Assembly (NCBI GenBank): GCA_050950465.1
Contig: JBMNHQ010000002.1
Location: 33,670-97,669, forward strand
From: Candidatus Nanosyncoccaceae bacterium
GTDB lineage: Bacteria; Patescibacteriota; Saccharimonadia; Saccharimonadales; Saccharimonadaceae
Length of the DNA: 64,000 bases
Direction of reading: 5' to 3'
Shown here in pieces: positions 9,600-54,737 of this stretch. The notes beneath the pieces were generated by a model that was not told where the DNA came from, searched no databases, and was given only the letters and a program-made list of their open reading frames with translations. The translations under genes were made by a program, and so were the position numbers. How positions within the stretch are numbered: the first letter of the stretch is position 1; each line of letters starts with the position of its first letter.

Positions 9600-9899
9600 A
9601 TGCTAGACGTATTTATAACATCGAGGGTGCGCCGCAAAATTGTGGTGGTCTATGCAAAGTACCCCGATTTCCGTACCCACGTTAGGGGACTGGCAAAGCT
9701 TATCAAAGAGGATCCGGGTAATATTCAGCGTGAATTAAAACGACTAGAGAATGTCGGCTTCCTGCGATGTGAACGTAAGGGTAATTCGCGAGTCTACTCT
9801 GCTAATAAGCAATTTTTAATTTTTAAAGAATTACAAAGTATTGTGATAAAAACTCAGCAACACGCTGCTAAGAAAAGAGCCTCAAGAAGAGCTAGCTAG
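9600..9899 (+). CDS. Small winged-helix (ArsR/MarR-like) DNA-binding protein
   Basis: The HTH-wing pattern LAKLIKEDPGNIQRELKRLENVGFLRCERKGNSRVY plus a basic tail. Its stop lies 1 nt before the recJ GTG. Confidence 0.6.
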   Translation: MLDVFITSRVRRKIVVVYAKYPDFRTHVRGLAKLIKEDPGNIQRELKRLENVGFLRCERKGNSRVYSANKQFLIFKELQSIVIKTQQHAAKKRASRRAS

Positions 9900-16498: not shown

Positions 16499-19400
16499 TT
16501 GAAATTAGTTACTCGCAAACTAACTAAGTTTCAACCTAAACTTAAATCAAGTTTTAGGTTAGGGTTTAAGTTTGGCTTCAAGATTCACACTAAACACAAA
16601 ACCTCACAAATATTACGTAGTGGTATTATATTAACTTCTCTTATACTTATTACTTTCTTAACACCCATGTTAAAGAAAACGTTTCAACCTCAAACAGTCA
16701 GTGCTGAAACTGTCACTAAGACTTGGCAGTTAAATCAAAACTCTGGCTATAACTACGACTACAACAACTACGAAATCGAACAAACTGCTACTGGGGCTCA
16801 GCTTAAACAACTACCAAGTTCGATTACTTTAACTGCGGATGAGGATAATTTGCTTGAGAGTTGGGGTCTAAGCGCTGGAACTGGGGTTGTCTCAATTATC
16901 GACGACCCATCTAGTGGCGGCACAGGTAAGGTTTATAGCGCCACTGGTCGTAATACTTTATACTCCAAATTTTATATACCGATTAACCCTGACCTCACTT
17001 ATACCCTAAATGGTAGATTCAAATCAGTTGGGGTGGGTGGGGAATCTAGGATATATTTTGGGCTTTATCCTAGCACTAAGCTCTATAATCAGTATAGTGC
17101 ACATAGTCGTCGCGAATATTTGGCTTTTGGTGATACTGCTACCATTTCTAATTACGACGATTTAACTATTACAGTTCAGCCTAGCGCTGACTTGTCGACT
17201 TGGAACCAGGGTGGGGTTGATGTCAGTCATAGACGCCTCGTAGGCTTTTATTTTGACGGTCAGACCAATAAGCTACCAGATTTTATCATACGCCCTCAGG
17301 GAATGGTTCTGAGTGATGTTGACCCAGCTCAAGGAGCTTATTCGACTGCTAGTGGCACGACTATCAATCTTAACGTACCGATTCCACCAGAAGTGCAGAC
17401 TAAAATAATTGCAGGAACAACTAAAATTAAGAACCATGCGGATGGTGCAGCTTATCTTTATGCGGCAGCCTATAACTCATTAGTTCCCACGTCGTCGTAT
17501 GCCAACTTTTCTGGTGCTGTAACTGGCACAAATACTAATTTAATTATTGCACACAATCTGTTTCCTTACGAGACCAATTGGGCGAAAATAGGCCTTATAT
17601 TAAATTATAATCAGGACGAAAACTTCACTACTAACTTCGACGACATCTCTCTCACCATCACTGGCTCTCAACCAATGTATTCATGGCAGTCACCAGCTAT
17701 TGGGCCACCATATAGTCAGTATGTCAGTGGCCAACTAATATCCATGAGTCATACCCTTGGTTCTGGCTCATCAGACAGTGTTAAATACCAAATCTCATTA
17801 GATGATGGCAAAAGTTGGTTGTATTACAACACAACCACTAACGCCTGGGAAAGTGACCTGTCTCAGCACATAGCTAACACAGAGAACCTTTATAGTACTC
17901 CTCTTATTCGTGACCATGGTGCTAACAAAGCCAATACTATCGACGAAATCAACGCTAACCTAAACAAATTACCAGCTACCGATGGTATCAAATTCAAATG
18001 GCGAGCCTTCCTAGAATCCAACGGCACACAGCAAGTTGAACTCCAATCAGTTACCCTTACGGCTAATAACCTTGATCCAACTATCACATCCGTCACACCT
18101 AGCATTGGTCAAACCACTGGTGGTGATACTATCACTATACGTGGCAGTGGCTTCTCTAACGATGAGTTTGAGTACTTTGTTGGTACTTGTGGTATGACTA
18201 AAAGCGGCAAGCTTTACTGCTGGGGTGATAATAGCCGTGGTAAGTTAGGTGATGGTACTTTCGTTTCTCGATCTGACAAACGTCCAATCGCTCAAGGTGA
18301 AGTTCCTATTACCACAATTTTTACACAAATCGTTAATAGCTGGTATCACATGTGTGCCCTTGGCGACGATAACGAAATCTACTGCTGGGGTGACAATCAA
18401 TATGGCCAACTAGGGGATAACACTTATGACAATCGTAATATTCCAACCAAAGTCAACAAAGGTGCTATCCCAGCTGGTGCTAAAATTGCCAGTATCTCGA
18501 CCGGCTTTCATCACACTTGTGTCTTAACTCAAGATGACAAAATGTATTGCTGGGGTCTAAATGATACTGGCCAACTGGGTGATGGCACTACCGACAATAG
18601 TCCTCTGCCAGTTGAGGTTAATCGCGGAGCCATTCCTACATCGGTGAGAATTAGAAGTCTACAAACAGGCTGGATGTCTAGTTGTGTCCTAGCGGGCGAT
18701 AATAATGTCTACTGCTGGGGAGACAATCGATACGGCCAGCTTGGTGATGGTACTACTGGCAGTAAGGCATCTCCAGTGCTTTTGTCTCAGGGCCAGCGCG
18801 ATCCGAGCTTTAATATTTCTCAATTATCTACAGGGGCCCACCATGCCTGTATAAAAGACAGTGATAATAAGAGCTACTGCTGGGGATTAAATACCTATGG
18901 TCAACTTGGCGATGGTACTTTGTTCAACAAAACTAGCCCAACAGCTGTTACTCAGGGGGATATGCCCAATCAAGACATTAAGCAAGTTGTGGCTGGTTAT
19001 CGGAATACTTATGTTATTGGCTCCGACGATAAGCTCTATGTCTGGGGACACAATGAACGTGGTTCGGTAGGTGACGGGACTTTTACAAACAGAAGCGCCC
19101 CAACTCTGACTCTATTGCCATATAGCTTGGGCACGGTTGTCAGTATGGATCAGTTTGCCTTTCGTAGTGTCGCTGTTTTGTCTAACAATCAAGTATACGC
19201 TTGGGGAGTAGCCAGTGGCTTTCTTGGCGACATTGTGTCGGGAGATCAACCTCTTCCTGTCCGCGCCAGTCGTTCATCTAACCAAGTCAAATTCGACAAC
19301 ACCTACGCACCCTACGTTGAGCGCATCTCACCATATAAACTACGAGTCAGAAACCCAGCACACGATGAGGGTATAGTAAGTGTCACCGCTACCAACTCCA

Positions 19401-22400
19401 CTGGCGAGACTACCACCAAAGCCGATTCTTACACCTACGAAAACCCCACCACACCAGAGATAACTAGCATCTCACCCAGCGAAGGTCTGATTTACGGTGG
19501 CGAAGAAGTCACTATCACTGGCATTAATTTAGATAATATGAAGTGGAAACAGGTGGCAGCTGGAGGCTCTCATGCTTGTGCTATTGGACTAGATAATAAT
19601 GTTTATTGCTGGGGACTAAACAGCTTTGGTCAACTTGGCAATGGTAACAACAACAACTCTAATATTCCCGTTGCTATTTCCCAAGGTGATATACCTACTA
19701 GTGTGACGATTCAGCAACTCTCGGCTGACAGCTATCATACCTGCGCTCTTGGTTCAGACAATAAAGCTTATTGCTGGGGGCGGAACAATTATGGCCAACT
19801 CGGTGATGGCAATAGTGGTTCTAGCGCTGATAAATCTACTCCAGTCGCCGTTCTTCAGGGCGCCATCCCAACTGGCGTCACCATTCAGCAAATCTCGGTT
19901 GGTGGCTCTCACACCTGCGTCCTTGGTTCAGACAATAAAGCTTATTGCTGGGGAAATAATTACCATGGCCAGCTTGGTAATAACAAGAGTGGTGGTAGTC
20001 AATTCTCGTACGATAATAATATTGATTCTTCAACTCCAGTTGCTGTTATCCAAGATAATGTCCCTACCGATATAGTTTTCCAACAAATTACAGTCGGTGG
20101 CGGTCATACCTGCGCTCTTGGTTCAGATAATAAAGCTTATTGCTGGGGGAGTAATAGTAATGGTCAGCTTGGTGATGGCACTACTAATAACAAAACCACT
20201 CCAGTCGCCGTTCTTCAGGGCGCCATCCCAACTGGCGTCACTATCCAGCAACTCTCGGCTGGCACCTCTCATACCTGCGCTCTTGGTTCAGACAATAAAG
20301 CTTATTGCTGGGGGCGGAACAATTATGGCCAACTCGGTGATGGCAATAGTGGTTCTAGCGCTGATAAATCTACTCCAGTCGCCGTTCTTCAGGGCGCCAT
20401 CCCAACTGGCGTCACCATTCAGCAAATCTTGGTTGGCACCTCTCACACCTGCGCTCTTGGTTCAGACAATAAAGCTTATTGCTGGGGATTTAATTGGGGT
20501 GGTCAGCTTGGTGATGGCACTACTAATAACAAAACCACTCCAGTCGCCGTTCTTCAGGGCGCCATCCCAACTGGCGTCACCATTCAGCAAATCTTGGTTG
20601 GCACCTCTCACACCTGCGCTCTTGGTTCAGACAATAAAGCTTATTGCTGGGGGAATAATAATAACGGTCAGCTTGGTGATAGCACTATAACCAACCGTAT
20701 TACTCCAGTACCTGTTAAAACCGCCAATTATTCGGTTGCTTTCGGTGATATTTCAACTCAACAAATTGTCTCATTAGTTAATACTCAAGTGAAAGTTGTT
20801 GCGCCAGCTCATCAATTTGGTGTCAAAGATATTAGTTTGACTCATACTATAATGAATCATACGAGTAGCACATTATCCAGTGCGTATAACTATATTAATC
20901 CGTCAGCACCTGTAATTGCGTCAGTTAATCCTAAAACTGGAGTGTCTGCTGGTAACATTAATGCGACAGTTCAAGTTGAAAATTCGTCGAACCTTAAAAT
21001 AGCTGATGATCTTGTGCAAATAACCACTGGCACCTCTCATACCTGCGCTCTTGGTTCAGACAATAAAGCTTATTGCTGGGGGCGGAACAATTATGGCCAA
21101 CTCGGTGATGGCAATAGTGGTTCTAGCGCTGATAAATCTACTCCAGTCGCCGTTCTTCAGGGCGCCATCCCAACTGGCGTCACCATTCAGCAAATCTCGG
21201 TTGGTGGCTCTCACACCTGCGTCCTTGGTTCAGACAATAAAGCTTATTGCTGGGGATTTAATTGGGGTGGTCAGCTTGGTGATGGCACTACTAATAACAA
21301 AACCACTCCAGTCGCCGTTCTTCAGGGCGCCATCCCAACTGGCGTCACCATTCAGCAAATCTCGGTTGGTGGCTCTCACACCTGCGCTCTTGGTTCAGAC
21401 AATAAAGCTTATTGCTGGGGATATAACAATCATGGTCAACTTGGTGATGGCGCTGGTAGTGCTGGTGATTATAAAACCACTCCAGTCGCCGTTCTTCAGG
21501 GCGCCATCCCAACTGGCGTCACTATCCAGCAACTCTCGGCTGGCACCTCTCATACCTGCGCTCTTGGTTCAGACAATAAAGTATATTGCTGGGGATACAA
21601 CTTTCTTGGTCAACTTGGTGATGGCACCAAGACTAATCGCACCACTCCTGTCGCCGTTTCCCAAGGTGATATACCTACTAGTGTAACGATTCAGCAACTC
21701 TCAGTTGGCAGCAACCATGCTTGTGTTCTTGACTCAAATAACCAGGTTTACTGTTGGGGACATGGTGGCTACGGTCAGCTCGGTGATGGCACTACGATCG
21801 ATAGCACTAGTCCAACTGCCGTTCTTTCTGGTGATATACCTACTAGCGTAACGATTCAGCAAGTTTTTGCTCTCGGAGCAGAAATATACAATGCTTATAC
21901 CTGCGCTCTTGGTTCAGACAATCGTGTCTATTGTTGGGGTTGGAATAGCTACGGTCAACTCGGTGATGGTACTGCTACTCAACGTAATGTCCCTACGGTC
22001 ATCCTTCCGGGTGTTATTCCTATGGATGTTATTTTTCAACAAATTGTTGGTGGCGGTTTTCACACCTGTGCCCTCGACTCAACTGGTAAAGCCTATTGTT
22101 GGGGACACAACGAATATGGTCAACTCGGCACCAACCAAGTAGGCGACCCAGACGATCTCACAGACATCTCAGCCAGTCGTTACACCCCCGCCTATGTCAT
22201 GATGAAGTCCGATCCACTGGAAGTAAGCTTTGGTACCACTGCTGAACACACCGCCGGCACAGCCGGACTAGCTACAGCCGTCTCATCATTCACCGTACCC
22301 GATGGCCAATACTACATCCCAGGCACCACTACACTAACTCTTAACACTCCAGCCCACTCTGTTGGTCCCGTAGCCGTAGTAGTTAAGAACGCTGATGGTC

Positions 22401-22540
22401 AATCTAGCTCTAACACCATCGCCGCTGATGACTCTAATAAGTACACCTACACCAGTGTCCCCGATGCCCCAACTAACCTAACCGCCAATGCTACACCAGT
22501 CACTAACCAAGGCATCAACTACAACATCAATCTAAGCTGA
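16499..22540 (+). CDS. Giant surface protein, copy 1: membrane anchor + beta-rich N domain + three IPT/TIG domains each split by a 7-bladed RCC1 propeller; reading frame stopped by TGA inside the FN3 domain
   Basis: TTG start after GGGGAAGGG. Basic N-terminus plus a hydrophobic helix (IILTSLILITFLTPML). There are 21 RCC1 signatures (YCWGxNxxGQLGDG) arranged 7+7+7, and IPT strands (ITSVTPSIGQTTGGDTITIRGSGF ... VKFDNTYAPYVERISPYKLRVRNPAH..YTY). TGA at 22538-22540. Confidence 0.9.
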   Translation: MKLVTRKLTKFQPKLKSSFRLGFKFGFKIHTKHKTSQILRSGIILTSLILITFLTPMLKKTFQPQTVSAETVTKTWQLNQNSGYNYDYNNYEIEQTATGAQLKQLPSSITLTADEDNLLESWGLSAGTGVVSIIDDPSSGGTGKVYSATGRNTLYSKFYIPINPDLTYTLNGRFKSVGVGGESRIYFGLYPSTKLYNQYSAHSRREYLAFGDTATISNYDDLTITVQPSADLSTWNQGGVDVSHRRLVGFYFDGQTNKLPDFIIRPQGMVLSDVDPAQGAYSTASGTTINLNVPIPPEVQTKIIAGTTKIKNHADGAAYLYAAAYNSLVPTSSYANFSGAVTGTNTNLIIAHNLFPYETNWAKIGLILNYNQDENFTTNFDDISLTITGSQPMYSWQSPAIGPPYSQYVSGQLISMSHTLGSGSSDSVKYQISLDDGKSWLYYNTTTNAWESDLSQHIANTENLYSTPLIRDHGANKANTIDEINANLNKLPATDGIKFKWRAFLESNGTQQVELQSVTLTANNLDPTITSVTPSIGQTTGGDTITIRGSGFSNDEFEYFVGTCGMTKSGKLYCWGDNSRGKLGDGTFVSRSDKRPIAQGEVPITTIFTQIVNSWYHMCALGDDNEIYCWGDNQYGQLGDNTYDNRNIPTKVNKGAIPAGAKIASISTGFHHTCVLTQDDKMYCWGLNDTGQLGDGTTDNSPLPVEVNRGAIPTSVRIRSLQTGWMSSCVLAGDNNVYCWGDNRYGQLGDGTTGSKASPVLLSQGQRDPSFNISQLSTGAHHACIKDSDNKSYCWGLNTYGQLGDGTLFNKTSPTAVTQGDMPNQDIKQVVAGYRNTYVIGSDDKLYVWGHNERGSVGDGTFTNRSAPTLTLLPYSLGTVVSMDQFAFRSVAVLSNNQVYAWGVASGFLGDIVSGDQPLPVRASRSSNQVKFDNTYAPYVERISPYKLRVRNPAHDEGIVSVTATNSTGETTTKADSYTYENPTTPEITSISPSEGLIYGGEEVTITGINLDNMKWKQVAAGGSHACAIGLDNNVYCWGLNSFGQLGNGNNNNSNIPVAISQGDIPTSVTIQQLSADSYHTCALGSDNKAYCWGRNNYGQLGDGNSGSSADKSTPVAVLQGAIPTGVTIQQISVGGSHTCVLGSDNKAYCWGNNYHGQLGNNKSGGSQFSYDNNIDSSTPVAVIQDNVPTDIVFQQITVGGGHTCALGSDNKAYCWGSNSNGQLGDGTTNNKTTPVAVLQGAIPTGVTIQQLSAGTSHTCALGSDNKAYCWGRNNYGQLGDGNSGSSADKSTPVAVLQGAIPTGVTIQQILVGTSHTCALGSDNKAYCWGFNWGGQLGDGTTNNKTTPVAVLQGAIPTGVTIQQILVGTSHTCALGSDNKAYCWGNNNNGQLGDSTITNRITPVPVKTANYSVAFGDISTQQIVSLVNTQVKVVAPAHQFGVKDISLTHTIMNHTSSTLSSAYNYINPSAPVIASVNPKTGVSAGNINATVQVENSSNLKIADDLVQITTGTSHTCALGSDNKAYCWGRNNYGQLGDGNSGSSADKSTPVAVLQGAIPTGVTIQQISVGGSHTCVLGSDNKAYCWGFNWGGQLGDGTTNNKTTPVAVLQGAIPTGVTIQQISVGGSHTCALGSDNKAYCWGYNNHGQLGDGAGSAGDYKTTPVAVLQGAIPTGVTIQQLSAGTSHTCALGSDNKVYCWGYNFLGQLGDGTKTNRTTPVAVSQGDIPTSVTIQQLSVGSNHACVLDSNNQVYCWGHGGYGQLGDGTTIDSTSPTAVLSGDIPTSVTIQQVFALGAEIYNAYTCALGSDNRVYCWGWNSYGQLGDGTATQRNVPTVILPGVIPMDVIFQQIVGGGFHTCALDSTGKAYCWGHNEYGQLGTNQVGDPDDLTDISASRYTPAYVMMKSDPLEVSFGTTAEHTAGTAGLATAVSSFTVPDGQYYIPGTTTLTLNTPAHSVGPVAVVVKNADGQSSSNTIAADDSNKYTYTSVPDAPTNLTANATPVTNQGINYNINLS
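18175..19265 (+). repeat. RCC1 propeller 1 of copy 1 (7 blades, approximate bounds)
   Basis: Seven (Y/V/A)(C/V/A)WG..N..G.LGDG motifs: KLYCWGDNSRG, EIYCWGDNQYG, KMYCWGLNDTG, NVYCWGDNRYG, KSYCWGLNTYG, KLYVWGHNERG, QVYAWGVASG. Confidence 0.85.
19541..20720 (+). repeat. RCC1 propeller 2 of copy 1 (7 blades, approximate bounds)
   Basis: Seven CWG blades. Several are nearly identical at the DNA level to each other and to blades of propeller 3. Confidence 0.85.
21011..22140 (+). repeat. RCC1 propeller 3 of copy 1 (7 blades, approximate bounds)
   Basis: Seven CWG blades, from KAYCWGRNNYG through KAYCWGHNEYG. Confidence 0.85.
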
Positions 22541-23263
22541 ACAGCACCAGTCAGTGATGGCTATAGTCCTATCACTGACTATCTCATAGAGTACTGCATT
22601 AGTAATAGCTCTGGTGTCTGTAACCCATCTCCAGAAGGGGACTGGACTATCTACAATGATGGCACCAGCACTAATACCAGTACTACCATAAGCTCTCTCC
22701 CAGCTAGCCCATCAGCCTACTATACCTTCAGAGTCTCAGCTATTAACAACATCGGCACTAGCCAACCTAGTAACACTCCTACAGTCCAAACTAGCTTCAT
22801 CACACTGTCTTCATCAGTTGACACTGTCACTATTAACATCAACCCATCAGCCAGTGGTAGTACTAATACCTTCTCATCCACTACCCATAATCTCATAGCC
22901 AACTCTAACACCAACTACAACATCACACTATCTATGCCTAGTACCACCCAAACTCTATCCAATGGCACTCACACCATTAACCCCACATCAGCTAATGCCT
23001 CCAATCCTCAATTAGACCTCCCAGCCAACACTTGGGGTTACCGACTCAATAACACTACCTTTGGCACCACTACTACCATAGAGACTAATGTCCCTAATAG
23101 CCAATACACTTGGGCTCAAGTTCAACAGAGCACCACACCAGACCTCATCTACACTGGCACAGGCAATCACACCTTCCCAGTCTACTATGGCTTAAAGGCT
23201 AGCCACACCCAAGCCTCTGGTACCTATACTGGCACTGTTACCTATACAGCTACGACGCAGTAG
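22541..23263 (+). pseudogene. In-frame 3' continuation of copy 1 (rest of FN3 domain + Thr-rich C-terminal domain) cut off by the single TGA
   Basis: There are 723 nt (241 codons) in the same frame as 16499, with no further stop until TAG at 23261-23263. The segment is near-identical to 54015-54737 of copy 2 at a constant offset of 31474. Confidence 0.85.
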
Positions 23264-23379
23264 GGGGCTAGGATAAACAATTTGCGAGTCGTGTTAGATA
23301 ATGGTACGGCCATTGACTTTTTATAGTTTTTGTGATACATTAGAAGTATCTAACAAACAAAAACAAAAAGGATCAATAA

Positions 23380-23638: not shown

Positions 23639-26155
23639 ATGTCAATAATTAAACAAAAGATTCTCGGTTTCATCGGTCGGCACCGTCTGCTAGTGTTTTC
23701 GCTATTTATTGCAATCTTATTGCCGATAGCGACTAGTGCGGCTGGTGACGTGAAAATCCGCATGATCAGTGATGGTCAAAAATACTTAAGAAATGCTGCT
23801 ACTGGCAAATATATGACGGCCAATCGTATGCTTGGGCCAAATGGTGAGGTTTATTTCTGCGCCAATAAGGGGTTGCGCGGACCGGACTATTTATCGCGCG
23901 GCTCTTATGGCACATACACCTCGCCTCAAAAAATGGGTGATTTACCCAAAAAGGTCCTTTTGTTAGGTTATCCAAATCGTCAGATAGCTGGCTTTAACGA
24001 GAGCGAGCAGTACCATATTACGCAAAATGCCTTCTGGGCAAGCTCAACTAATTATGTAGTAAACGCTAAAAACACAGTCGGGAATTTGCGTGCAACATCA
24101 TATGTTAACGGCAAGGCTCGAAATGAACAGATTTTGCAGGCAGTTAAGGATCTTTATAATCACGCTGTCAGCACCAATATTGCTGAGTTTAATCCAAGCC
24201 TAACCTTGAATTCGGCGCCTCAGGCTACATTAAAGGGCGATATCTTTGTAGCAGGCCCCTTTTCAGTTACTGGCAAAAACGTCAGGTCGGCTAATCTCGC
24301 ACTGAGTGCAACCGGTGTTAACAACGCTAGATTTTACAATGAGCAAAATCAAACTATTACCCATATTGGTCTTGGACAGAAATTTTACATAAGTTTTCCT
24401 AAGCTAGGTAATAGTCTAAAGGGTACGGCAAACATTAATCTAAGCGGTAAGCAATCTTACTTAGAGGGATTGATTTATAAGCCACCGCAAAGCAATATGC
24501 AAGACATGGCGACATTGGAGGTTGTTGAGACGGCCGCCAATTTAAATACAGCTGCTAAATGGGAATTGACTCCATCTGGTCGTGTCGAAATACTTAAAAT
24601 TGATGCTATTTCTTCAAAACCCCTCTCTGGTGCGACGTTTGAGATTTATAACTCTTCTGGACAAAAAGTTTATTCAGCCGTAACTGATAATAGTGGAAAA
24701 ATTACCTCTTCAAATTTAAACGCTGGTAAATACACTTTCAAAGAAACAGTAGCGCCATCGGGCTATTATCTAAATGATAGAGTTGGCACAGTTGAAATTA
24801 AAACTAATGGCGAGTTGGTGCGCGCCAGTTTGAGTAATCAACCAATTCCAGACACACCTATTCAGATTAAAAAAGTGGATGCTAACACTAAGACAGTCTT
24901 GCGTGGTGCAAAGATTGAAGTACTCAATTCTAATAATGTCAAAGTATTTTCAGGTCTAACCGACAATAATGGCATAGCTGAAGTTGGCCAGCTCAAGGCT
25001 GGTAAATATACTTACAAAGAAGTTGAGCCACCTGCTGGCTATTATCATAATACCAACACTTATGACTTTACTATTAACCCAGGCGATAGCCTAAAGGTAC
25101 TAACCATAGAGAATACCGCTGTAAAGAAAATAACCGTCTGTGATTTAACTAGTCGATCTATGGTGACAATTGAAGAGACTAAGTTCGATTCTGCAAAATA
25201 TTCTAAAAATCAAGACGACTGTACAAGCATTGAAGTCTGTGACCTGACAACCCGTAAGTCTACTACCATCATCAAAACAGCCTTTGATAAAACCAAACAC
25301 TCTAACAACTGGGATGATTGTACAAGCATCGAGGTCTGCGATTTAACAACCCGCAAACCAGCTACCATCATCAAAACAGCCTTTGATAAAACCAAACACT
25401 CTAACAACTGGGATGATTGTGAGTCGATTAAGGTCTGTGATCTAAAAACTCGCAAATCGGTTACCATCATCAAAACAGCCTTTGACAAAACTAAGCACTC
25501 TAATAACCTAGACGACTGTACAAGCATTGAAGTCTGTGACCTGACAACCCGTAAGTCTACTACCATCATCAAAACAGCCTTTGATAAAACCAAACACTCT
25601 AACAACTGGGATGATTGTACAAGCATCGAGGTCTGCGATTTAACAACCCGCAAACCAGCTACCATCATCAAAACAGCCTTTGATAAAACCAAACACTCTA
25701 ACAACTGGGATGATTGTACGGAAACTAAGGTATGTGAGTTGGATAGTAAAAAAGTAATTACGATTGTAGAATCAGCTTTCGATCCAGCTAAACATTCACG
25801 CAACTTAGAAGACTGTAATCTTAAGATTGAAGTTTGTGAGTTGGAAACCAAGAATATCATCATCATCGACGAAACAAAGTTTGATTCCGTCAAACATTCA
25901 AAGAATCTAGAAGATTGTATTCCGAAAATCGAAGTTTGTGACCTAAACACTAAACAGATAGTTACTATCAAAGAGGCAGACTTTGATGAAACCAAATATT
26001 CCAAGGATCATGAAGACTGTCTCTCGACTCCAGCTGAACTGCCAAAAACTGGTCCACTGGAAACCGTGGCTGCATTGATTGCCATCACCGCTGTTAGCTT
26101 GTCGATTACCTACTGGTATAAATCAGCTCAAGCAGTTAAACAGATTAAGCGCTAA
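23639..26155 (+). CDS. LPXTG-anchored adhesin: signal peptide, thioester (TED/TQXA) domain, two SpaA/Cna-B prealbumin-like domains, nine 33-aa Cys-bounded repeats
   Basis: Signal LLVFSLFIAILLPIATSAAG. VYFCANKG (Cys74, nt 23858-60) with LLGYPN and HITQNAFW (Gln129, nt 24023-25) match thioester-domain motifs. Two copies of the G.kYt.kEt.aP.GY pattern. LPKTG at 26039-26053, then a helix and a basic tail. Confidence 0.85.
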   Translation: MSIIKQKILGFIGRHRLLVFSLFIAILLPIATSAAGDVKIRMISDGQKYLRNAATGKYMTANRMLGPNGEVYFCANKGLRGPDYLSRGSYGTYTSPQKMGDLPKKVLLLGYPNRQIAGFNESEQYHITQNAFWASSTNYVVNAKNTVGNLRATSYVNGKARNEQILQAVKDLYNHAVSTNIAEFNPSLTLNSAPQATLKGDIFVAGPFSVTGKNVRSANLALSATGVNNARFYNEQNQTITHIGLGQKFYISFPKLGNSLKGTANINLSGKQSYLEGLIYKPPQSNMQDMATLEVVETAANLNTAAKWELTPSGRVEILKIDAISSKPLSGATFEIYNSSGQKVYSAVTDNSGKITSSNLNAGKYTFKETVAPSGYYLNDRVGTVEIKTNGELVRASLSNQPIPDTPIQIKKVDANTKTVLRGAKIEVLNSNNVKVFSGLTDNNGIAEVGQLKAGKYTYKEVEPPAGYYHNTNTYDFTINPGDSLKVLTIENTAVKKITVCDLTSRSMVTIEETKFDSAKYSKNQDDCTSIEVCDLTTRKSTTIIKTAFDKTKHSNNWDDCTSIEVCDLTTRKPATIIKTAFDKTKHSNNWDDCESIKVCDLKTRKSVTIIKTAFDKTKHSNNLDDCTSIEVCDLTTRKSTTIIKTAFDKTKHSNNWDDCTSIEVCDLTTRKPATIIKTAFDKTKHSNNWDDCTETKVCELDSKKVITIVESAFDPAKHSRNLEDCNLKIEVCELETKNIIIIDETKFDSVKHSKNLEDCIPKIEVCDLNTKQIVTIKEADFDETKYSKDHEDCLSTPAELPKTGPLETVAALIAITAVSLSITYWYKSAQAVKQIKR
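25124..26020 (+). repeat. Nine tandem 99-bp (33-aa) coding repeats, consensus IEVCDLtTrK..TIiKtaFDktKHSnN.dDCts
   Basis: Read directly from the translation. Repeats 2-3 and 5-6 are DNA-identical, reflecting a ~297-bp higher-order duplication (about 25210-25410 = 25507-25707). Confidence 0.9.
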
Positions 26156-47430: not shown

Positions 47431-50400
47431 TTGAAATTAGTTACTCGCAAACTAACTAAGTTTCAACCTAAGCTAAATAAAGCAACACAGTTTAGGTTAG
47501 GGTTTAAGTTTGGGTTTAAGTCTAAGGCTAACTCAGTTCAAAGCTCTAGCCCTAACTCTAATCTAAGCCTAAAGACTAATTATGGTTTTAAGATAAAAAC
47601 CAAACACCAAACCAACCAAACCCTAAGACTAGGACTAACACTAGCTTCACTCATACTCATAACCTTCCTATCACCTATACTAAAGAAGACCTTCACTCCA
47701 CACACAACTAACGCTACTACCATAACTAAAACATGGCAGTTAAACCAGAATATTCCCACTCAATACGATTACAACACACATGAAATTGAACAAACCGCTA
47801 CTGGCGCTAGACTAAAACAACTACCAAGCTCCATCACACTTACGGCTGATGAAGAGAGTTTCTTTGATGTGTGGGAGCCATATTATGGCGGTGGGCAAAC
47901 TTCAATAGTTGACGACCCTTCCAGTGGTGGTAATGGTAAAGTGTATAATGTTGCTAATCATGTTCAGCTTTTCTCTAATTTCTTTGTACCAATTAATCCA
48001 GATTTTACTTATACTATAAGTGGAAGATTTAAGTCAGTTGGTGCAGGTGGTGAATCTATGGTGTATTTTGGTCTTGCACCATATGATAAAAATTATTATC
48101 AACCAAACTTTATACAGCGGAGTGATTACCGTGCTGTTGGCGATACGGCCACTATTGCTAATTATGATGATTCAACTATCACAGTTCAAGCTGGCGTAGA
48201 TTTATCGACTTGGAATCAAGGTGGAGTGGATTTAGCTGTTGATCGTTTAATTGGCTTCTATTTTGATGGTCAGACTGACAAATTACCAGATTTTGTCATA
48301 TCGCCTCAAGAGTCTGGTTATTATTATAGTACAGATCCGACTAGAGGGGCTTATTCCACTGCTAGTGGTACAACCATTAATCTTAATACACCGATTCCGC
48401 CTGAAGTGCAGGCTAAAATAAACTTAGATGTAACGAAGATTAAGAATCATATGGGCGACTCTACATATCTTTATACAGCAGCTAAGTCAAAACTTATTCC
48501 CGCTAATATATACACTACCTATTCGGGTAGTATAACTGGCATAAATACTAGCTTGGGTCAAAATATACATAACTCATTCCCATACGAAACCAATTGGGCA
48601 AAAATAGTTATCTTACTCAACTATGGTCAAGATCATAATTATGCTACCAACTTCGACGACATCTCTCTCACTATCACTGGTTCTCAACCAATGTATTCAT
48701 GGCAGTCACCAGCTATTGAGCCACCATATAGCCAATACGTTAGTGGTCAACTAACATCTATGAGTCACACGCTTGGCTCTGGCTCATCAGACAGTGTTAA
48801 ATACCAAATCTCATTAGATAATGGCAAAAGCTGGCTTTATTACAACACGACCACTAACGCTTGGGAAAGTGACTTATCTCAGCGAGTATCAAATAGTAGT
48901 ATTTATCGCATTACTACCATCCGTGACCACGGCGCCCTCAAAGCCAATACTATCGAAGAAATCAACGCCAACTTAAACAAGTTACCAGCCACCGATGGCA
49001 TCCAATTCAAATGGCGCGCCTTCTTAGAGTCCAACGGCACTCAGCAGGTTGAACTCCAATCAGTCACTCTCACAGCCAATAACCTTGATCCAACTATCAC
49101 ATCCGTCACACCTAGCATTGGTCAAACCACTGGTGGTGATACTATCACTATACGTGGCAGTGGCTTCTCTAACGATGAGTTTGAGTACTTTGTTGGTACT
49201 TGTGGTATGACTAAAAGCGGCAAGCTTTACTGCTGGGGTGATAATACTTGTGGCCAACTAGGTGATGGCACTTTTACTAGCCGTTTAGATAAACGACCAA
49301 TCGCTCAAGGTGAAGTCCCAACCACTACAACCTTCACTCAGATTGTTAAAGGCTGGCTACACATGTGTGCTCTTGGCGACGATAACGAAATCTACTGCTG
49401 GGGTGACAATCAATATGGCCAATTGGGCGATGGTGCTTTCGACAACCGCAACATTCCAACTAAAGTCAACAAAGGCGCCATACCAGCCAGTGCTAAAATA
49501 ACCTCTATTTCTACAGCTTATTACCACACCTGTGCTCTAACCCAAGACGATAAGATGTATTGTTGGGGGCAAAATGACCTCGGTCAACTCGGTGACGGTA
49601 CCACTGACAATCGCTCACTACCAGTTGAAGTTAACCGTGGTAATATCCCAACATCAGTTAGAATCAGAAGTCTGCAGACTGGCTGGAAGCATAGCTGTGT
49701 CCTCGCTGGCGATAATAACGTCTATTGTTGGGGTCGAAACACTCTTGGTCAGCTCGGTGATGGTACTACTACTCATAGATCATCTCCAGTCCTTGTAATT
49801 CAAGGTCAGCGTGACCCTAGCTATAATATTACTCAATTATCCGTCGGTGCTCACTATGCCTGTATCAAGGATACTGATAGTAAAGCCTATTGTTGGGGTC
49901 GAAATGTTGATGGTGAATTAGGTAGCGGAATTACATCAAACTACGAAACTAGCCCAGTCGCTATTGCCCAAGGAGTTATGCCTGATCAAAATATTAAAAC
50001 CATCATGGCAGGCTATTGGAGCACTTATGCGATTAGCTCTGATGACAAACTTTATGCTTGGGGGCATAACGGAGACGGTTCCTTAGGTGATGGCACCACT
50101 ATAAATCGCAATACACCAATATTAGTCTCGTTACCGTACAGTTCTGGTGTAAATATCTCTCATACTAATTTCTGGTGGCGCTCTGCTCGAGTTACTGTGT
50201 CTAATGGACATCATTATATTTGGGGATTAAACAATCATGGCCAATTAGGTGATGGCACACAAACTAGCTACCACACACCAACCCACATCCGCTACTCCAC
50301 TAACCAAGTCAAGTTTGGTGACAACTACGCACCACAAGTTGAGCGTATTTCACCATATGAACTGCGTGTCCGAAACCCAGCGCATGAAGCTGGAGTAGTA

Positions 50401-50553
50401 GGAGTAACAGCCACCAACTCAACTGGCGAGACTACCACCAAAGCCGATTCTTACACCTACGAAAACCCCACCACACCAGAAATAACTAGCATCTCACCTA
50501 ACGAAGGTCTGATCTACGGTGGCGAGAAGTCACTATATCTGGCACTAATTTAG
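47431..50553 (+). CDS. Giant surface protein, copy 2, 5' part (anchor, N domain, IPT1 with nested 7-blade RCC1 propeller, start of IPT2), ended by frameshift
   Basis: TTG start in a context identical to copy 1 and collinear with copy 1 throughout. After ...ITSISPNEGLIYGGE the frame runs out (KSLYLALI, TAG 50551-53) because of a 1-nt deletion relative to copy 1. Confidence 0.9.
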   Translation: MKLVTRKLTKFQPKLNKATQFRLGFKFGFKSKANSVQSSSPNSNLSLKTNYGFKIKTKHQTNQTLRLGLTLASLILITFLSPILKKTFTPHTTNATTITKTWQLNQNIPTQYDYNTHEIEQTATGARLKQLPSSITLTADEESFFDVWEPYYGGGQTSIVDDPSSGGNGKVYNVANHVQLFSNFFVPINPDFTYTISGRFKSVGAGGESMVYFGLAPYDKNYYQPNFIQRSDYRAVGDTATIANYDDSTITVQAGVDLSTWNQGGVDLAVDRLIGFYFDGQTDKLPDFVISPQESGYYYSTDPTRGAYSTASGTTINLNTPIPPEVQAKINLDVTKIKNHMGDSTYLYTAAKSKLIPANIYTTYSGSITGINTSLGQNIHNSFPYETNWAKIVILLNYGQDHNYATNFDDISLTITGSQPMYSWQSPAIEPPYSQYVSGQLTSMSHTLGSGSSDSVKYQISLDNGKSWLYYNTTTNAWESDLSQRVSNSSIYRITTIRDHGALKANTIEEINANLNKLPATDGIQFKWRAFLESNGTQQVELQSVTLTANNLDPTITSVTPSIGQTTGGDTITIRGSGFSNDEFEYFVGTCGMTKSGKLYCWGDNTCGQLGDGTFTSRLDKRPIAQGEVPTTTTFTQIVKGWLHMCALGDDNEIYCWGDNQYGQLGDGAFDNRNIPTKVNKGAIPASAKITSISTAYYHTCALTQDDKMYCWGQNDLGQLGDGTTDNRSLPVEVNRGNIPTSVRIRSLQTGWKHSCVLAGDNNVYCWGRNTLGQLGDGTTTHRSSPVLVIQGQRDPSYNITQLSVGAHYACIKDTDSKAYCWGRNVDGELGSGITSNYETSPVAIAQGVMPDQNIKTIMAGYWSTYAISSDDKLYAWGHNGDGSLGDGTTINRNTPILVSLPYSSGVNISHTNFWWRSARVTVSNGHHYIWGLNNHGQLGDGTQTSYHTPTHIRYSTNQVKFGDNYAPQVERISPYELRVRNPAHEAGVVGVTATNSTGETTTKADSYTYENPTTPEITSISPNEGLIYGGEKSLYLALI
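49189..50300 (+). repeat. RCC1 propeller 1 of copy 2 (7 blades, approximate bounds)
   Basis: Seven CWG/AWG/IWG blade motifs, from KLYCWGDNTCG to HHYIWGLNNHG. Confidence 0.85.
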
Positions 50554-50573
50554 ATAATTTTAAGTTTAAACAA

Positions 50574-53500
50574 ATGGCTAAATCAGGTGGACCAACTAAT
50601 CACAACTGTGTTATTGGTCTAGATGGTTGGGTTTATTGTTGGGGGCGTAATGAATCTGGTCAACTTGGTACTGGCGATACCAATAGCCGCTCTACTCCAG
50701 TTGCTATCCAGCGTGGTGAAATACCAGCCGATGCTACTATTGAGTCTCTCTACATTGGTGGACGCCATGGTTGCGTTATTACTGACGCAGGCGATGCTTA
50801 CTGTTGGGGTGAAAACAACTCTGGTCAACTTGGTAACGGTCTATCAGGTGGGAGGGGTGACTCATTTGACCTTGGTATTGATCAGTCTACTCCAGTAGCT
50901 GTCCAACGAGGTATTATACCAACTAACGTTAAATTTTCCCAAATGGCCTTAGGCGGTGATGCTAGCGTCAATGGTTCTCCACCTGAGCACACCTGCGCCC
51001 TCGACTCAGCAGGTCAAGCCTACTGTTGGGGATATAACTACTATGGCCAACTCGGCACTGGTAATACTACTAGCTCCAATATCCCAGTTGCCGTCCAGTC
51101 TAATGACCTTGGCCACGCTCTCTATGGTAAGACTATTACCCAAATCACGGCTGGCTACTCTCACACCTGCGCCCTCGACTCAGCTGGCCAAGCCTACTGT
51201 TGGGGAAATAATTACCATGGTCAACTTGGTACTGGTGTGAGTGGTGGTGTCTCATATTATTATGATGACGGTATTGACTTCAACGTCCCAGTCCCCATCA
51301 AAGCTAATGACCCAACTGACGCTCTCCATAACAAAACCATCACCCAAGTCATAGCTGGTCGGCAGCACACCTGCGCTCTCGACTCAGACGGTAAGGTCTA
51401 CTGCTGGGGGTATAATAACTATGGCCAACTCGGCACTGGTAACGCCACTGACTTCAACGTCCCAGTCCCCATCAAAGCTAATGACCCAACTGACGCTCTC
51501 CATAACAAAACCATCACCCAAGTCATAGCTGGTCGGCAGCACACCTGCGCTCTCGACTCTACTGGCAAAGCCTACTGTTGGGGATATAATCAATATGGTC
51601 AACTCGGCACTGGTAATAGCACTAGCTCCAATGTACCAGTTTCCGTCAAAGCTGACCAACCAACCGATGTTCTCTACGGTAAAATTATTACGCAAATCAC
51701 AGCTGGTGGCTATGACACCTGCGCTCTCGACTCAGCTGGCCAAGCCTACTGTTGGGGATATAACTACTATGGCCGGCTCGGCATTGGTAATAATACTAGC
51801 TCTAATGTCCCACTACTAGTCAAACCAGGCTATCTCATCTACTTTGGTGGTACACCAACTAGCTTGGGTCTCTATCCAACTGGTAATAACACTAAATTAA
51901 CCAGTATTGAACTTAAAGTCATATCTCCAGCTGTCAGTGGACCGGCTACTGTTAATATTACTCTTCACTCTACTACTACCAACACTACCTATAACACCCT
52001 CAACCAAGTCTACACTTTCATTAGTCCACCAACTCCAATTATCACCCAAGTCATTCCTAACGCTGGCTCAGCTAATGGCAATACTGCCATAAGAGCTACT
52101 AACTTATCTAACCTCAAGTTAGCCGATGATTTTACTCAAATTACAGCTGGTGGTAGTCACACCTGCGCTCTCGACTCAGATAATAAAGCTTATTGTTGGG
52201 GAGGTGGCTACTCTGGTCAACTCGGCACTGGTAATACTAACAACTCTAATGTCCCAGTCCTCGTCAAAGCTGATGACCCAACTGACGCTCTCTATGGTAA
52301 AACCATTGCGCAAATCACCGCTGGCAGCTCTCACACCTGCGCCCTCGATTCCACCGGCCAAGCCTACTGTTGGGGGCATAACCAGTATGGCCAACTCGGC
52401 ACTGGTGATACCACTAACTCCAACGTCCCAGTCGCCGTCCAGTCTAACGACCCAACTGACGCTCTCTATGGTAAAACTATTACTCAAATCACGGCTAGCC
52501 AGCACCACACTTGCGCTACTGACTCCACTGGTCAAGCTTACTGTTGGGGAAGAAACGGCTTTGGCCAACTCGGTAATGGCGATACTAACGACTCCAATGT
52601 CCCAGTTCTAGTTGAAGCTAATAATCCAACTGATGCTCTCTATGGTAAAACCATTGCGCAAATCACCGCTGGCACCTCTCACACCTGCGCTCTCGATTCC
52701 ACCGGCCAAGCCTACTGTTGGGGATATAACGGCTCTGGCCAACTCGGCACTGGTGATACCACTAACTCCAACGTCCCAGTCGCCGTCCAGTCTAACGACC
52801 CAACTGACGCTCTCTATGGTAAAACTATTACTCAAATCACGGCTAGCCAGCACCACACTTGCGCTACTGACTCCACTGGTCAAGCTTACTGTTGGGGAAG
52901 AAACGGCTTTGGCCAACTCGGTAATGGCGATACTAACGACTCCAATGTCCCAGTTCTAGTTGAAGCTAATAATCCAACTGATGCTCTCTATGGTAAAACT
53001 ATTACCCAAATCACGGCTGGCACCTCTCACACCTGCGCTCTCGATTCCACCGGCCAAGCCTACTGTTGGGGATATAACGGCTCTGGCCAACTCGGCACTG
53101 GTGATACCACTAACTCCAACGTCCCAGTCGCCGTCCAGTCTAACGACCCAACTGACGCTCTCTATGGTAAAACTATTACTCAAATCACGGCTAGCCAGCA
53201 CCACACTTGCGCTACTGACTCCACTGGTCAAGCTTACTGTTGGGGAAGAAACGGCTTTGGCCAACTCGGTAATGGCGATACTAACGACTCCAATGTCCCA
53301 GTTCTAGTTGAAGCTAATAATCCAACTGATGCTCTCTATGGTAAAACTATTACCCAAATCACGGCTGGCACCTCTCACACCTGCGCCCTCGATTCCACCG
53401 GCCAAGCCTACTGTTGGGGGCATAACCAGTATGGCCAACTCGGCACTGGTGATACCACTAACTCCAACGTCCCAGTCGCCGTCCAGTCTAACGACCTAAC

Positions 53501-54737
53501 TGACGCTCTCTATGGTAAAACCATTGCGCAAATCACCGCTGGCAGCTCTCACACCTGCGCCCTCGACTCCGCTGGCCAAGCCTACTGTTGGGGATATAAC
53601 TACTATGGCCGGCTCGGCACCAAACAATCGGGCATCGACTTATCTATGCAGCGTTACACCCCCGCCTATGTCATGATGAAGTCCGATCCACTGGAAGTCA
53701 GCTTTGGCACTACAGCTGAACACACCGCCGGCACAGCTGGACTAGCCACAGCCGTCTCGTCCTTTGATGTTCCAACTGGTCAGTATTACATCCCAGGCAC
53801 CACTACACTAACCCTTAACACTCCAGCTCACTCTGCTGGTCCCGTAGCCGTAGTAGTAAAGAACGCTGATGGTCAATCCAGCTCTAACACCATTGCCGCT
53901 GACAACTCTAATAAGTACACCTACACCAGTGTCCCGGATAGCCCAACCAACCTAACCGCCAATGCTACACCAGTCACTAACCAAGGCATCAACTACAACA
54001 TCAATCTAAGCTGGACAGCACCAGTCAGTGATGGCTATAGTCCAATCACTGACTATCTCATAGAGTACTGCATTAGTAATAGCTCTGGTGTCTGTAACCC
54101 ATCTCCAGAAGGGGACTGGACTATCTACAATGATGGCACCAGCACTAATACCAGTACTACCATAAGCTCTCTCCCAGCTAGCCCATCAGCCTACTATACC
54201 TTCAGAGTCTCAGCTATTAACAACATCGGCACTAGCCAACCTAGTAACACTCCTACAGTCCAAACTAGCTTCATCACACTGTCTTCATCAGTTGACACTG
54301 TCACTATTAACATCAACCCATCAGCCAGTGGTAGTACTAATACCTTCTCATCCACTACCCATAATCTCATAGCCAACTCTAACACCAACTACAACATCAC
54401 ACTATCTATGCCTAGTACCACCCAAACTCTATCCAATGGCACTCACACCATTAACCCCACATCAGCTAATGCCTCCAATCCTCAATTAGACCTCCCAGCC
54501 AACACTTGGGGTTACCGACTCAATAACACTACCTTTGGCACCACTACTACCATAGAGACTAATGTCCCTAATAGCCAATACACTTGGGCTCAAGTTCAAC
54601 AGAGCACCACACCAGACCTCATCTACACTGGCACAGGCAATCACACCTTCCCAGTCTACTATGGCTTAAAGGCTAGCCACACCCAAGCCTCTGGTACCTA
54701 TACTGGCACTGTTACCTATACAGCTACGACGCAGTAG
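50574..54737 (+). CDS. Giant surface protein, copy 2, 3' part (rest of IPT2 with 7-blade propeller, IPT3 with 9-blade propeller, FN3, C-terminal domain)
   Basis: The frame is open from 50502. Translated from 50526 it reads EVTISGTNLDNFKFKQMAKSGG..., collinear with copy 1 (EVTITGINLDNMKWKQVAAGG...). The ATG at 50574 is internal and has no SD. Contains 16 CWG blades and an FN3 domain (about 53931-54262) with the LSWTAP tryptophan intact. Confidence 0.9.
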   Translation: MAKSGGPTNHNCVIGLDGWVYCWGRNESGQLGTGDTNSRSTPVAIQRGEIPADATIESLYIGGRHGCVITDAGDAYCWGENNSGQLGNGLSGGRGDSFDLGIDQSTPVAVQRGIIPTNVKFSQMALGGDASVNGSPPEHTCALDSAGQAYCWGYNYYGQLGTGNTTSSNIPVAVQSNDLGHALYGKTITQITAGYSHTCALDSAGQAYCWGNNYHGQLGTGVSGGVSYYYDDGIDFNVPVPIKANDPTDALHNKTITQVIAGRQHTCALDSDGKVYCWGYNNYGQLGTGNATDFNVPVPIKANDPTDALHNKTITQVIAGRQHTCALDSTGKAYCWGYNQYGQLGTGNSTSSNVPVSVKADQPTDVLYGKIITQITAGGYDTCALDSAGQAYCWGYNYYGRLGIGNNTSSNVPLLVKPGYLIYFGGTPTSLGLYPTGNNTKLTSIELKVISPAVSGPATVNITLHSTTTNTTYNTLNQVYTFISPPTPIITQVIPNAGSANGNTAIRATNLSNLKLADDFTQITAGGSHTCALDSDNKAYCWGGGYSGQLGTGNTNNSNVPVLVKADDPTDALYGKTIAQITAGSSHTCALDSTGQAYCWGHNQYGQLGTGDTTNSNVPVAVQSNDPTDALYGKTITQITASQHHTCATDSTGQAYCWGRNGFGQLGNGDTNDSNVPVLVEANNPTDALYGKTIAQITAGTSHTCALDSTGQAYCWGYNGSGQLGTGDTTNSNVPVAVQSNDPTDALYGKTITQITASQHHTCATDSTGQAYCWGRNGFGQLGNGDTNDSNVPVLVEANNPTDALYGKTITQITAGTSHTCALDSTGQAYCWGYNGSGQLGTGDTTNSNVPVAVQSNDPTDALYGKTITQITASQHHTCATDSTGQAYCWGRNGFGQLGNGDTNDSNVPVLVEANNPTDALYGKTITQITAGTSHTCALDSTGQAYCWGHNQYGQLGTGDTTNSNVPVAVQSNDLTDALYGKTIAQITAGSSHTCALDSAGQAYCWGYNYYGRLGTKQSGIDLSMQRYTPAYVMMKSDPLEVSFGTTAEHTAGTAGLATAVSSFDVPTGQYYIPGTTTLTLNTPAHSAGPVAVVVKNADGQSSSNTIAADNSNKYTYTSVPDSPTNLTANATPVTNQGINYNINLSWTAPVSDGYSPITDYLIEYCISNSSGVCNPSPEGDWTIYNDGTSTNTSTTISSLPASPSAYYTFRVSAINNIGTSQPSNTPTVQTSFITLSSSVDTVTININPSASGSTNTFSSTTHNLIANSNTNYNITLSMPSTTQTLSNGTHTINPTSANASNPQLDLPANTWGYRLNNTTFGTTTTIETNVPNSQYTWAQVQQSTTPDLIYTGTGNHTFPVYYGLKASHTQASGTYTGTVTYTATTQ
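50580..51830 (+). repeat. RCC1 propeller 2 of copy 2 (7 blades of ~58 aa, approximate bounds)
   Basis: Seven YCWG.N..G.LG.G motifs. The blades carry an extra DPTDAL(Y/H)(G/N)KTI segment not present in copy 1. Confidence 0.85.
52248..53639 (+). repeat. Tandem array of four 348-bp units (two RCC1 blades each) inside propeller 3 of copy 2
   Basis: The AATGTCCCAGT unit starts recur at 52248, 52596, 52944 and 53292, an exact 348-bp period. The two central units differ at only a few bases, and the flanking units are more diverged. Confidence 0.9.

Follow-up and report, generated by a model that had tools for sequence, protein, structure and literature searches.

Three IPT/TIG domains, each interrupted by a complete seven-bladed RCC1-like propeller, in a giant protein from a Saccharibacterium

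Introduction

In RTX adhesins the ligand-binding domains project from split Ig-like domains, and the N and C termini of each projecting domain are adjacent (PMC12077191; 10.1101/2025.09.30.679566). A single adhesin can present several of these heads; there are three in AhLap and six CBMs in an adhesin from Acinetobacter (PMC12077191; 10.1101/2025.09.30.679566). Here we analyze a window of 64,000 nucleotides (nt) from a Candidatus Nanosyncoccaceae bacterium (assembly GCA_050950465.1, contig JBMNHQ010000002.1, positions 33,670 to 97,669 of the forward strand), in which two related genes, called copy 1 and copy 2, encode giant proteins made of IPT/TIG domains and RCC1-like propellers.

The two folds are each known from other surface or secreted proteins. 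In plexins and in MET a Sema-fold propeller stands in series at the N-terminus, outside the IPT domains, and each chain carries a single head. A head can also be nested in an Ig-like domain: in integrin beta a beta-I domain is inserted in the Ig-like hybrid domain, and in the pilus tip adhesin RrgA a vWA domain is nested in Ig-like domains. BLIP-II of Streptomyces is a secreted RCC1-type propeller and a known binder. RCC1 propellers are furthermore present in proteins that are named as phage tail fibres. In Saccharibacteria such a propeller occurs in the minor pilin PilX2 (PMC11623550). The way in which Saccharibacteria, or Patescibacteria in general, recognize and bind their bacterial hosts is largely unknown (PMC11623550); only type IV pili have so far been implicated.

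Results

Copy 1 is an open reading frame of 2013 amino acids (aa) with a TTG start (positions 16499-22540, + strand). Its translation is identical to a protein (P0001) that is annotated as [quoted passage not shown] (MAG, metagenome-assembled genome), which assigns copy 1 to the phylum Saccharimonadota. Shorter open reading frames inside copy 1, all of them in other frames of the + strand and within repeated coding sequence, were treated as shadows of the repeats. A comparison of the native protein with Pfam returned two kinds of domains. The RCC1-like families (PF00415, PF13540 and PF25390) were matched with E-values of 2e-240 for WD40_RLD (6 stretches) and 2.7e-182 for RCC1 (20 stretches). 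The TIG family was found in 3 stretches, the best of which covered only profile positions 1-29 of 84. A match that stops at this point is what a domain that is truncated, or split, would produce.

In a splice test each propeller was deleted in silico and the joined halves were scanned against Pfam. The spliced unit 1 matched the TIG profile PF01833 over its full length (positions 1-84 of 84, E 2.8e-16, 59.7 bits); when scanned alone, its N-half matched positions 1-29 and its C-half positions 31-84. The spliced unit 2 was matched from position 1 to 73 of 84 (E 2.6e-12, 47.0 bits). The match of the spliced unit 3 (positions 1-79 of 84, E 1.3e-4, 22.3 bits) lies barely above the gathering score of 20.9 bits.

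When a hidden Markov model (HMM) was built from nothing but the spliced halves, it matched 433 ordinary TIG domains from end to end; these domains are contiguous and belong to 24 unrelated TIG-repeat proteins. From these 433 contiguous domains of other proteins a second model, the canonical TIG HMM, was constructed. This model matched every TIG domain of native copy 1 as two separate stretches. In unit 1, aa 526-555 align with model positions 3-32 and aa 928-983 with 33-89; in unit 2, aa 985-1027 align with positions 3-43 and aa 1411-1468 with 33-89; and in unit 3, aa 1469-1492 align with positions 2-25 and aa 1925-1987 with 32-89. The N- and C-halves of the three units are separated by 370, 394 and 407 residues respectively. 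Collinear half-matches which break at model position 32/33 were obtained for 6 of the 6 units in the window, copy 2 included. In all units the break follows the motif GxNF at the end of strand B and precedes the motif VxFG at the start of strand C.

The inserts of copy 1 each contain seven YxWG motifs, which are 51-65 aa apart. Propellers 2 and 3 have blade cassettes of 300 nt in common, with up to 96% DNA identity. Guanine-nucleotide exchange on Ran, the activity of RCC1 proper, is not expected of these inserts in an extracellular bacterial protein. Together, these data confirm that copy 1 has three IPT/TIG domains in which a complete RCC1-like propeller of seven blades separates strand B from strand C. 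A first-pass annotation of the window, made from the sequence alone, had proposed that a propeller interrupts each of the three domains, and the spliced Pfam matches and split HMM matches bear it out. The peptides which it quoted were found where it had placed them, its count of seven blades for each insert of copy 1 agrees with the motif count (7/7/7), and in a domain table of the native protein, made with the canonical TIG HMM, the split TIG matches flank the RCC1 matches.

The structure of unit 1 was modeled with AlphaFold2 (AF2). The native unit (aa 524-985, alignment of 8 sequences) gave a predicted local distance difference test (pLDDT) score of 87 and a predicted template modeling (pTM) score of 0.85. 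DSSP assigned two strands to the N-half, 28 to the propeller (2 + 6x4 + 2) and five to the C-half. In the model this pattern amounts to a seven-bladed propeller, the closing blade of which is formed by the first two and the last two strands. With a closing blade that is shared in this manner the termini of the propeller should adjoin, as insertion into a loop requires. The seven TIG strands have pLDDT values of mostly 73-87; since the pTM of 0.85 exceeds the approximately 0.80 that could be reached by the propeller alone (370 of 462 residues), the TIG part would seem to be placed with confidence relative to the propeller. A Foldseek search with this model found UVR8 with a template modeling score by target (TMt) of 0.85-0.89 and HERC2, RPGR and RCC1 with a TMt of 0.65-0.83; the RCC1-like domain of RCC2 was also matched.

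The spliced TIG1, an artificial construct that was modeled from 6 sequences of the window, formed one sandwich (pLDDT 85.5), and its strands occupy the same positions as in the in-context model of unit 1. Foldseek matched this sandwich to the IPT/TIG domains of EBF1, CAMTA1, MET and plexin and to domain D of CGTase, with template modeling scores by query (TMq) of 0.67-0.81. The matches to EBF1, CAMTA1, MET and plexin span 86-101 of 94 columns; the scores were TMq 0.71 and TMt 0.75 for the IPT/TIG domain of EBF1 and TMq 0.72-0.79 for the IPT domains of MET and plexin. For unit 1 the structure predictions thus agree with the suggestion of the first-pass annotation that the halves make up one beta-sandwich with the propeller as an insert. 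From the two models we infer that the halves of one native unit pack together as one sandwich around the propeller.

Next to the architecture we analyzed its distribution. The closest homologue of copy 1 (P0002, 43% identity) has the same plan without the N-terminal domain. A genome scan with one genome per species returned 80 RCC1 loci, 11 of which contain the split unit. Nine of these are labeled Saccharibacteria, Saccharimonadales or Microsaccharimonas, and the other two are from one MAG labeled "uncultured bacterium"; one locus (L006) has three consecutive split units. In the same scan, the loci from Gemmatimonadota and Actinoplanes have plain RCC1 propellers with no split TIG, and one Eiseniibacteriota locus showed only a weak match to the N-half. 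An exhaustive profile search, which covered 1.84 billion representative proteins, yielded 233,404 RCC1 relatives, and the best 150 were examined for the split unit; it is present in at least 11 giant metagenomic proteins among these 150. The named members from this search are three Candidatus Saccharibacteria and one MAG labeled Sporolactobacillus, and they are annotated as "IPT/TIG domain-containing" or "hypothetical". The last of these labels, "MAG: Sporolactobacillus sp.", belongs to a multi-unit protein of 6137 aa (P0089) and may reflect either a mistake in binning or a genuine transfer.

The number and the order of units vary among the relatives. One protein has eight split units (P0047), another has six which alternate with ordinary TIG domains (P0075), and intact multi-unit relatives reach a length of 6,773 aa. 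Among 55 units of other genomes, HMM position 31 is the most frequent end of the N-part and position 34 the most frequent start of the C-part; the median insert is 384 aa long, and 37 of the 55 contain seven blade motifs. In some proteins one split unit lies between complete TIG domains. The order in L019 is a complete TIG domain, an N-half, seven blades, a C-half and two more complete TIG domains, and the same situation is found in P0075 and P0096. When a split unit is flanked by complete TIG domains, as in L019 and P0075, its two halves can only pair with each other. The use of one cut point across genomes would fit a single insertion event that was followed by duplication of the composite unit. 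The composite unit is a mobile building block; it occurs in tandem duplications or in alternation with ordinary TIG domains and gives up to eight heads in related giant proteins. In two proteins (P0080 and P0170) about 12-14 blade motifs stand between a TIG N-half and a C-half, which suggests two propellers in one TIG domain.

Copy 2 (47431-54737) has the leader, the N-terminal domain and the three split units of copy 1. The first-pass annotation had ascribed the same plan to both copies; this is true for the three split TIG domains, but the blade numbers of copy 2 are 7/7/9 and its frame is shifted in the N-half of TIG2 by the loss of one nucleotide. The nine blades of the third insert come from a 348-nt tandem repeat of two blades, which is present in four copies with 94% identity (52186-53594, + strand). 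The insert may fold as a propeller with nine blades, it may have expanded recently in a gene that is dead, or it may be an artefact of the assembly.

The identity between the two copies changes along the protein. It is 100% in the TIG1 N-half, 71% in propeller 1, 51% in propeller 2, 32% in the TIG2 C-half, 33% in the TIG3 N-half, 57% in propeller 3 and 95% in the TIG3 C-half. The ends are also similar on the DNA level, with 90% identity for the leader (16499-16590 versus 47431-47520) and 94% identity to copy 2 for the region 22051-23269 of copy 1. The paralogues are mosaics with conserved ends and a divergent middle.

Both genes, as well as the gene for P0002, contain a lesion. In copy 1 a TGA stop occupies the position of a Trp codon of copy 2, and the frame continues past this stop for 240 codons, which encode an fn3 domain and the C-terminal domain. 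In copy 2 one A was lost inside the TIG2 N-half. The gene for P0002 has an in-frame TAA (L081, approximately 9799-9801) where the repeat pattern suggests Gln. These lesions could be pseudogenization, on/off switching or population variation, or errors in the MAG consensus or assembly. Recoding of TGA as Trp was ruled out; TGA terminates 5 of 23 ordinary genes in the window.

Outside the split units the proteins contain several other parts. In copy 1, copy 2 and P0002 a very basic leader, (M/L)KLVTRKLTKFQPKL...FRLGFKFGFK, precedes a hydrophobic helix. On sequence grounds the leader and the one hydrophobic helix are read as an export signal or a signal-anchor; the conserved basic leader may be an export or sorting signal specific to this lineage. 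The N-terminal domain (aa 68-523) had no match in NCBIfam and no credible match in the PDB. In Pfam the only match of this domain, to GH81, was below threshold (E 0.0049). Among 5.8 billion sequences a single homologue was found, a partial match of 252 aa, in a word-index search that can miss distant relatives. The C-terminal domain, which is about 130 aa long, contains a TWGY motif and has the ending G.Y.GTVTYTA, lies at 54330-54734 in copy 2 and past the stop at 22860-23260 in copy 1; it is conserved in P0080 and P0145. The two motifs had raised the suspicion of a WxL-like wall-binding domain, which was not upheld; only a faint Pfam match to DUF4402 and no PDB profile match were obtained. 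Both fn3 and TIG domains are common in extracellular proteins. The coordinates of all features are collected in Table 1.

Table 1. Features of copy 1 and copy 2, with positions in the window.
Feature	Positions	Strand	Basis
Basic N-terminal leader (KLVTRKLTKFQPKL...FRLGFKFGFK), then hydrophobic helix (GIILTSLILITFLTPML)	16499-16669	+	Read from the sequence; leader kept in copy 2 and P0002
N-terminal domain, about 455 aa (aa 68-523), nearly orphan	16700-18067	+	No family match, single partial homologue
TIG1 N-half, strands A and B, aa 526-555	18074-18163	+	Pfam TIG 1-29; canonical TIG HMM 3-32; AF2 strands E5-11 and E21-27
Propeller 1, seven RCC1 blades, aa 556-926, 2+2 strand "velcro" closing blade	18164-19276	+	Pfam, motif count, AF2, Foldseek
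TIG1 C-half, strands C to G, aa 927-983	19277-19447	+	Pfam TIG 31-84; canonical TIG HMM 33-89; five AF2 strands
TIG2 N-half, aa 985-1014	19451-19540	+	Spliced Pfam match, canonical TIG HMM
Propeller 2, seven blades, aa 1015-1408	19541-20722	+	Pfam, motif count
TIG2 C-half, aa 1409-1468	20723-20902	+	Spliced Pfam match, canonical TIG HMM
TIG3 N-half, aa 1469-1497, weakest of the three half-matches	20903-20989	+	Canonical TIG HMM 2-25, independent E-value 0.0026
Propeller 3, seven blades, aa 1498-1904	20990-22210	+	Motif count
TIG3 C-half, aa 1905-1987, loop of about 20 aa inserted after strand C	22211-22459	+	Spliced Pfam match, canonical TIG HMM
Premature TGA where copy 2 has TGG (Trp)	22538-22540	+	Comparison with copy 2
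In-frame stretch past the TGA: fn3 domain and C-terminal domain of about 130 aa	22541-23263	+	Pfam; comparison with copy 2
Copy 2, first open reading frame: leader, N-terminal domain, split-TIG unit 1 (seven blades), start of TIG2 N-half	47431-50553	+	
Copy 2, 1-nt deletion relative to copy 1 (GCGAAGAAG -> GCGAGAAG), frame shifted inside TIG2 N-half	50524-50525	+	
Copy 2, second open reading frame: propeller 2 (seven blades), TIG2 C-half, split-TIG unit 3 (nine blades), fn3, C-terminal domain	50574-54737	+	

Copy 1 is surrounded by ordinary chromosomal genes, with ftsA and ftsZ upstream and genes for a thioester-domain/SpaA protein and a nucleotidyl transferase downstream. The first of the downstream genes (23639-26155, + strand) encodes 838 aa with a thioester domain (TED) and SpaA prealbumin-like domains; at the C-terminus an LPKTG motif is followed by a hydrophobic helix and a basic tail. 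A 99-nt tandem repeat is present in five copies within the gene (25220-25719). From its sequence this Saccharibacterial protein has the appearance of an adhesin that is anchored by sortase and binds covalently.

Discussion

Several features favor an adhesin: the leader with its one hydrophobic helix, the fn3 and TIG domains, the split-domain plan, the RCC1 propellers of PilX2 and of the phage tail fibres, the divergence of propellers 2 and 3 between conserved ends, and the blade cassettes shared within the gene. We consider it probable that the product of copy 1 is a giant protein at the surface of a Saccharibacterium, either secreted or anchored in the membrane, which acts as a multivalent adhesin with propeller heads, probably for binding to the host. 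The first-pass annotation had suggested three ligand-binding heads per molecule, and by analogy with known adhesins it is a reasonable inference that the three propellers are such heads; the strongest support comes from the literature, because projected inserts of split domains bind ligands in RTX adhesins. In such a protein the three IPT/TIG domains, arranged head-to-tail, would form a short stalk or rod. The chain would leave each TIG sandwich after strand B, that is in the B-C loop, fold the propeller and return for strands C to G. It would enter and exit the propeller through the one closing blade, so that the two ends run side by side. In the Ig topology the B-C loop should be at the N-terminal pole of the sandwich, and the propellers would emerge sideways near the domain junctions. 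The best guess for the target is the surface of the bacterial host, because Saccharibacteria live as episymbionts. The specificity of the heads may have been diversified by exchange and duplication of blade cassettes.

Two alternatives concern the architecture itself. If there were no insertion, the C-half of one unit and the N-half of the next could form a sandwich by circular permutation or strand swapping, with the propellers strung between such sandwiches like beads. The two pieces in question are contiguous in the sequence, and the AF2 model of a single unit, which offers no alternative partner to either half, does not speak against this. However, the linker between them (NPTTP, about 5 residues) is a normal linker of tandem TIG domains, which from Ig topology seems too short for the length of a sandwich; moreover, there would be no partner for the first N-half or for the last C-half, and the single split units between complete TIG domains in L019, P0075 and P0096 have no neighboring half with which they could pair. 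We therefore regard this arrangement as very unlikely. Even less credible is a scrambling of RCC1 and TIG repeats during assembly. The gene is indeed highly repetitive and derived from a MAG, but the same cut point recurs in the 6 units of the window and in 55 further units, which come from 11 loci of independent genomes and from at least 11 metagenomic proteins.

Other alternatives accept the architecture and dispute the role. The protein could be a scaffold for self-assembly or for the envelope, similar to an S-layer, or it could bind nutrients or other proteins of the epibiont. The PDB matches are compatible with this, in that RCC1-like propellers are general platforms for protein binding without a fixed class of ligand, and neither a wall anchor nor a ligand site was identified in a protein with an orphan N-terminal domain. 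On the other hand, projected domains are ligand binders by the split-domain criterion of known adhesins, and a head number between 1 and 8 together with mosaic sequences is more in keeping with a recognition protein that varies than with a protein that forms a lattice; we judge a role other than host adhesion to be rather unlikely. It is unlikely, too, that the genes are decaying pseudogenes or repeat-driven relics and that the three-headed protein is no longer made. The TGA for TGG in copy 1, with TGA a normal stop in this window, the 1-nt deletion in copy 2, the in-frame TAA in the gene for P0002 and the odd nine-blade unit that arose from the 348-nt tandem repeat would all agree with decay. 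Yet there is one lesion per 2,000-2,400 codons in frames that are otherwise open, the stop in copy 1 follows all three units, so that a three-headed product would still be made, and intact multi-unit relatives exist with up to 6,773 aa. In addition, the genes are repetitive and were assembled into MAGs from short reads, and consensus or assembly errors, or variants in the population, could look alike. Several observations weigh against a host-binding protein with three propeller heads. The three closest genes have exactly one disruption each and may be decaying. The tail of copy 2 (...GTYTGTVTYTATTQ) is without LPXTG or another recognized wall anchor. The real activity could be carried by the N-terminal domain of about 455 aa or by the C-terminal domain. 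The TIG2 C-half and the TIG3 N-half (32-33% identity) are as divergent as the heads, so the mosaic block extends beyond the heads, and the AF2 alignments, with 8 and 6 sequences, are shallow.

A multivalent, propeller-headed adhesin nevertheless remains our preferred interpretation of copy 1. A more far-reaching and speculative version, which as a whole we think improbable, is that these proteins are host-recognition adhesins specific to Saccharibacteria, with heads that are re-assorted by recombination of blade cassettes, with single lesions that switch the genes on and off and with a head repertoire that sets the host range. Recombination of cassettes would account for the cassettes with 96% identity, for the expansion from seven to nine blades and for the mosaic paralogues.

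Whatever their ligands may be, these recurrent giant surface proteins, with 1 to 8 propeller heads and with labeled members that are nearly all Saccharibacteria, are candidate recognition proteins, and the boundaries of the heads are defined well enough for expression and testing. In domain tables the nesting is masked; such tables give "IPT/TIG domain-containing" with truncated TIG matches.

The Sema-PSI-IPT receptors, i.e. plexins and MET, likewise combine a seven-bladed propeller with an IPT/TIG stalk, in the serial order described above. Integrin beta and RrgA also have a head nested in a loop of an Ig-like leg, but they belong to unrelated families, and their single head has a vWA fold. 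A protein from Bacteriovorax stolpii (P0009) contains the same two Pfam families as copy 1; it has about 10 contiguous TIG domains, then one C-terminal propeller, and no TIG domain is split. In PilX2, in the phage tail fibres and in BLIP-II the propeller is terminal or stands alone and is not nested in an Ig-like domain; that the propellers of PilX2 and of the tail fibres serve in recognition is our own reading.

Among the closest described systems are the RTX adhesins. In AhLap of Aeromonas hydrophila, FrhA of Vibrio cholerae and MpIBP of Marinomonas a whole domain likewise interrupts an Ig-like sandwich in a tandem rod (PMC12077191; 10.1101/2025.09.30.679566; PMC12970687). The two features by which PMC12077191 recognizes a ligand-binding domain, adjacent termini and projection from a split Ig-like domain of the stalk, are matched by the predicted architecture of copy 1, and ligand binding would follow by analogy. 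The remaining components differ. RTX adhesins are type I secreted proteins of Gram-negative bacteria with an N-terminal retention module, BIg extenders, Ca2+ linkers, a C-terminal RTX beta-roll and a type I secretion signal, all of which are lacking in copies 1 and 2; Pfam finds only TIG, RCC1 and fn3 in the latter, with no RTX nonapeptide repeats at the C-terminus. The heads of RTX adhesins are CBM, vWFA, PBD or beta-roll domains of about 17-28 kDa, whereas the head is here an RCC1 propeller of about 40 kDa, and no propeller is among the heads named in PMC12077191 and 10.1101/2025.09.30.679566. In RTX adhesins the cut follows the first strand or precedes the last two, and in copies 1 and 2 it follows strand B of the IPT/TIG domain. 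Literature searches on RCC1 together with Saccharibacteria, Patescibacteria, TIG or domain insertion, whose incomplete coverage does not prove absence, found no description of the nesting.

The first-pass annotation could not assign the arrangement to a described family. This has to be narrowed, as display from a split domain was already known from the RTX adhesins; it is the combination of TIG and RCC1 which appears to be undescribed. The proteins themselves are already in public databases, and what appears to be new are the parts (TIG plus RCC1 propeller), the site of the cut and the lineage. Since the general split-domain principle was known before, the advance is incremental and lies in the architecture. 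With these proteins the split-domain rule for spotting ligand-binding domains extends past the Gram-negative RTX adhesins to a Saccharibacterial protein with a new class of heads. The design of copies 1 and 2 works like the split-domain unit of RTX adhesins, yet it is not a member of the RTX family.

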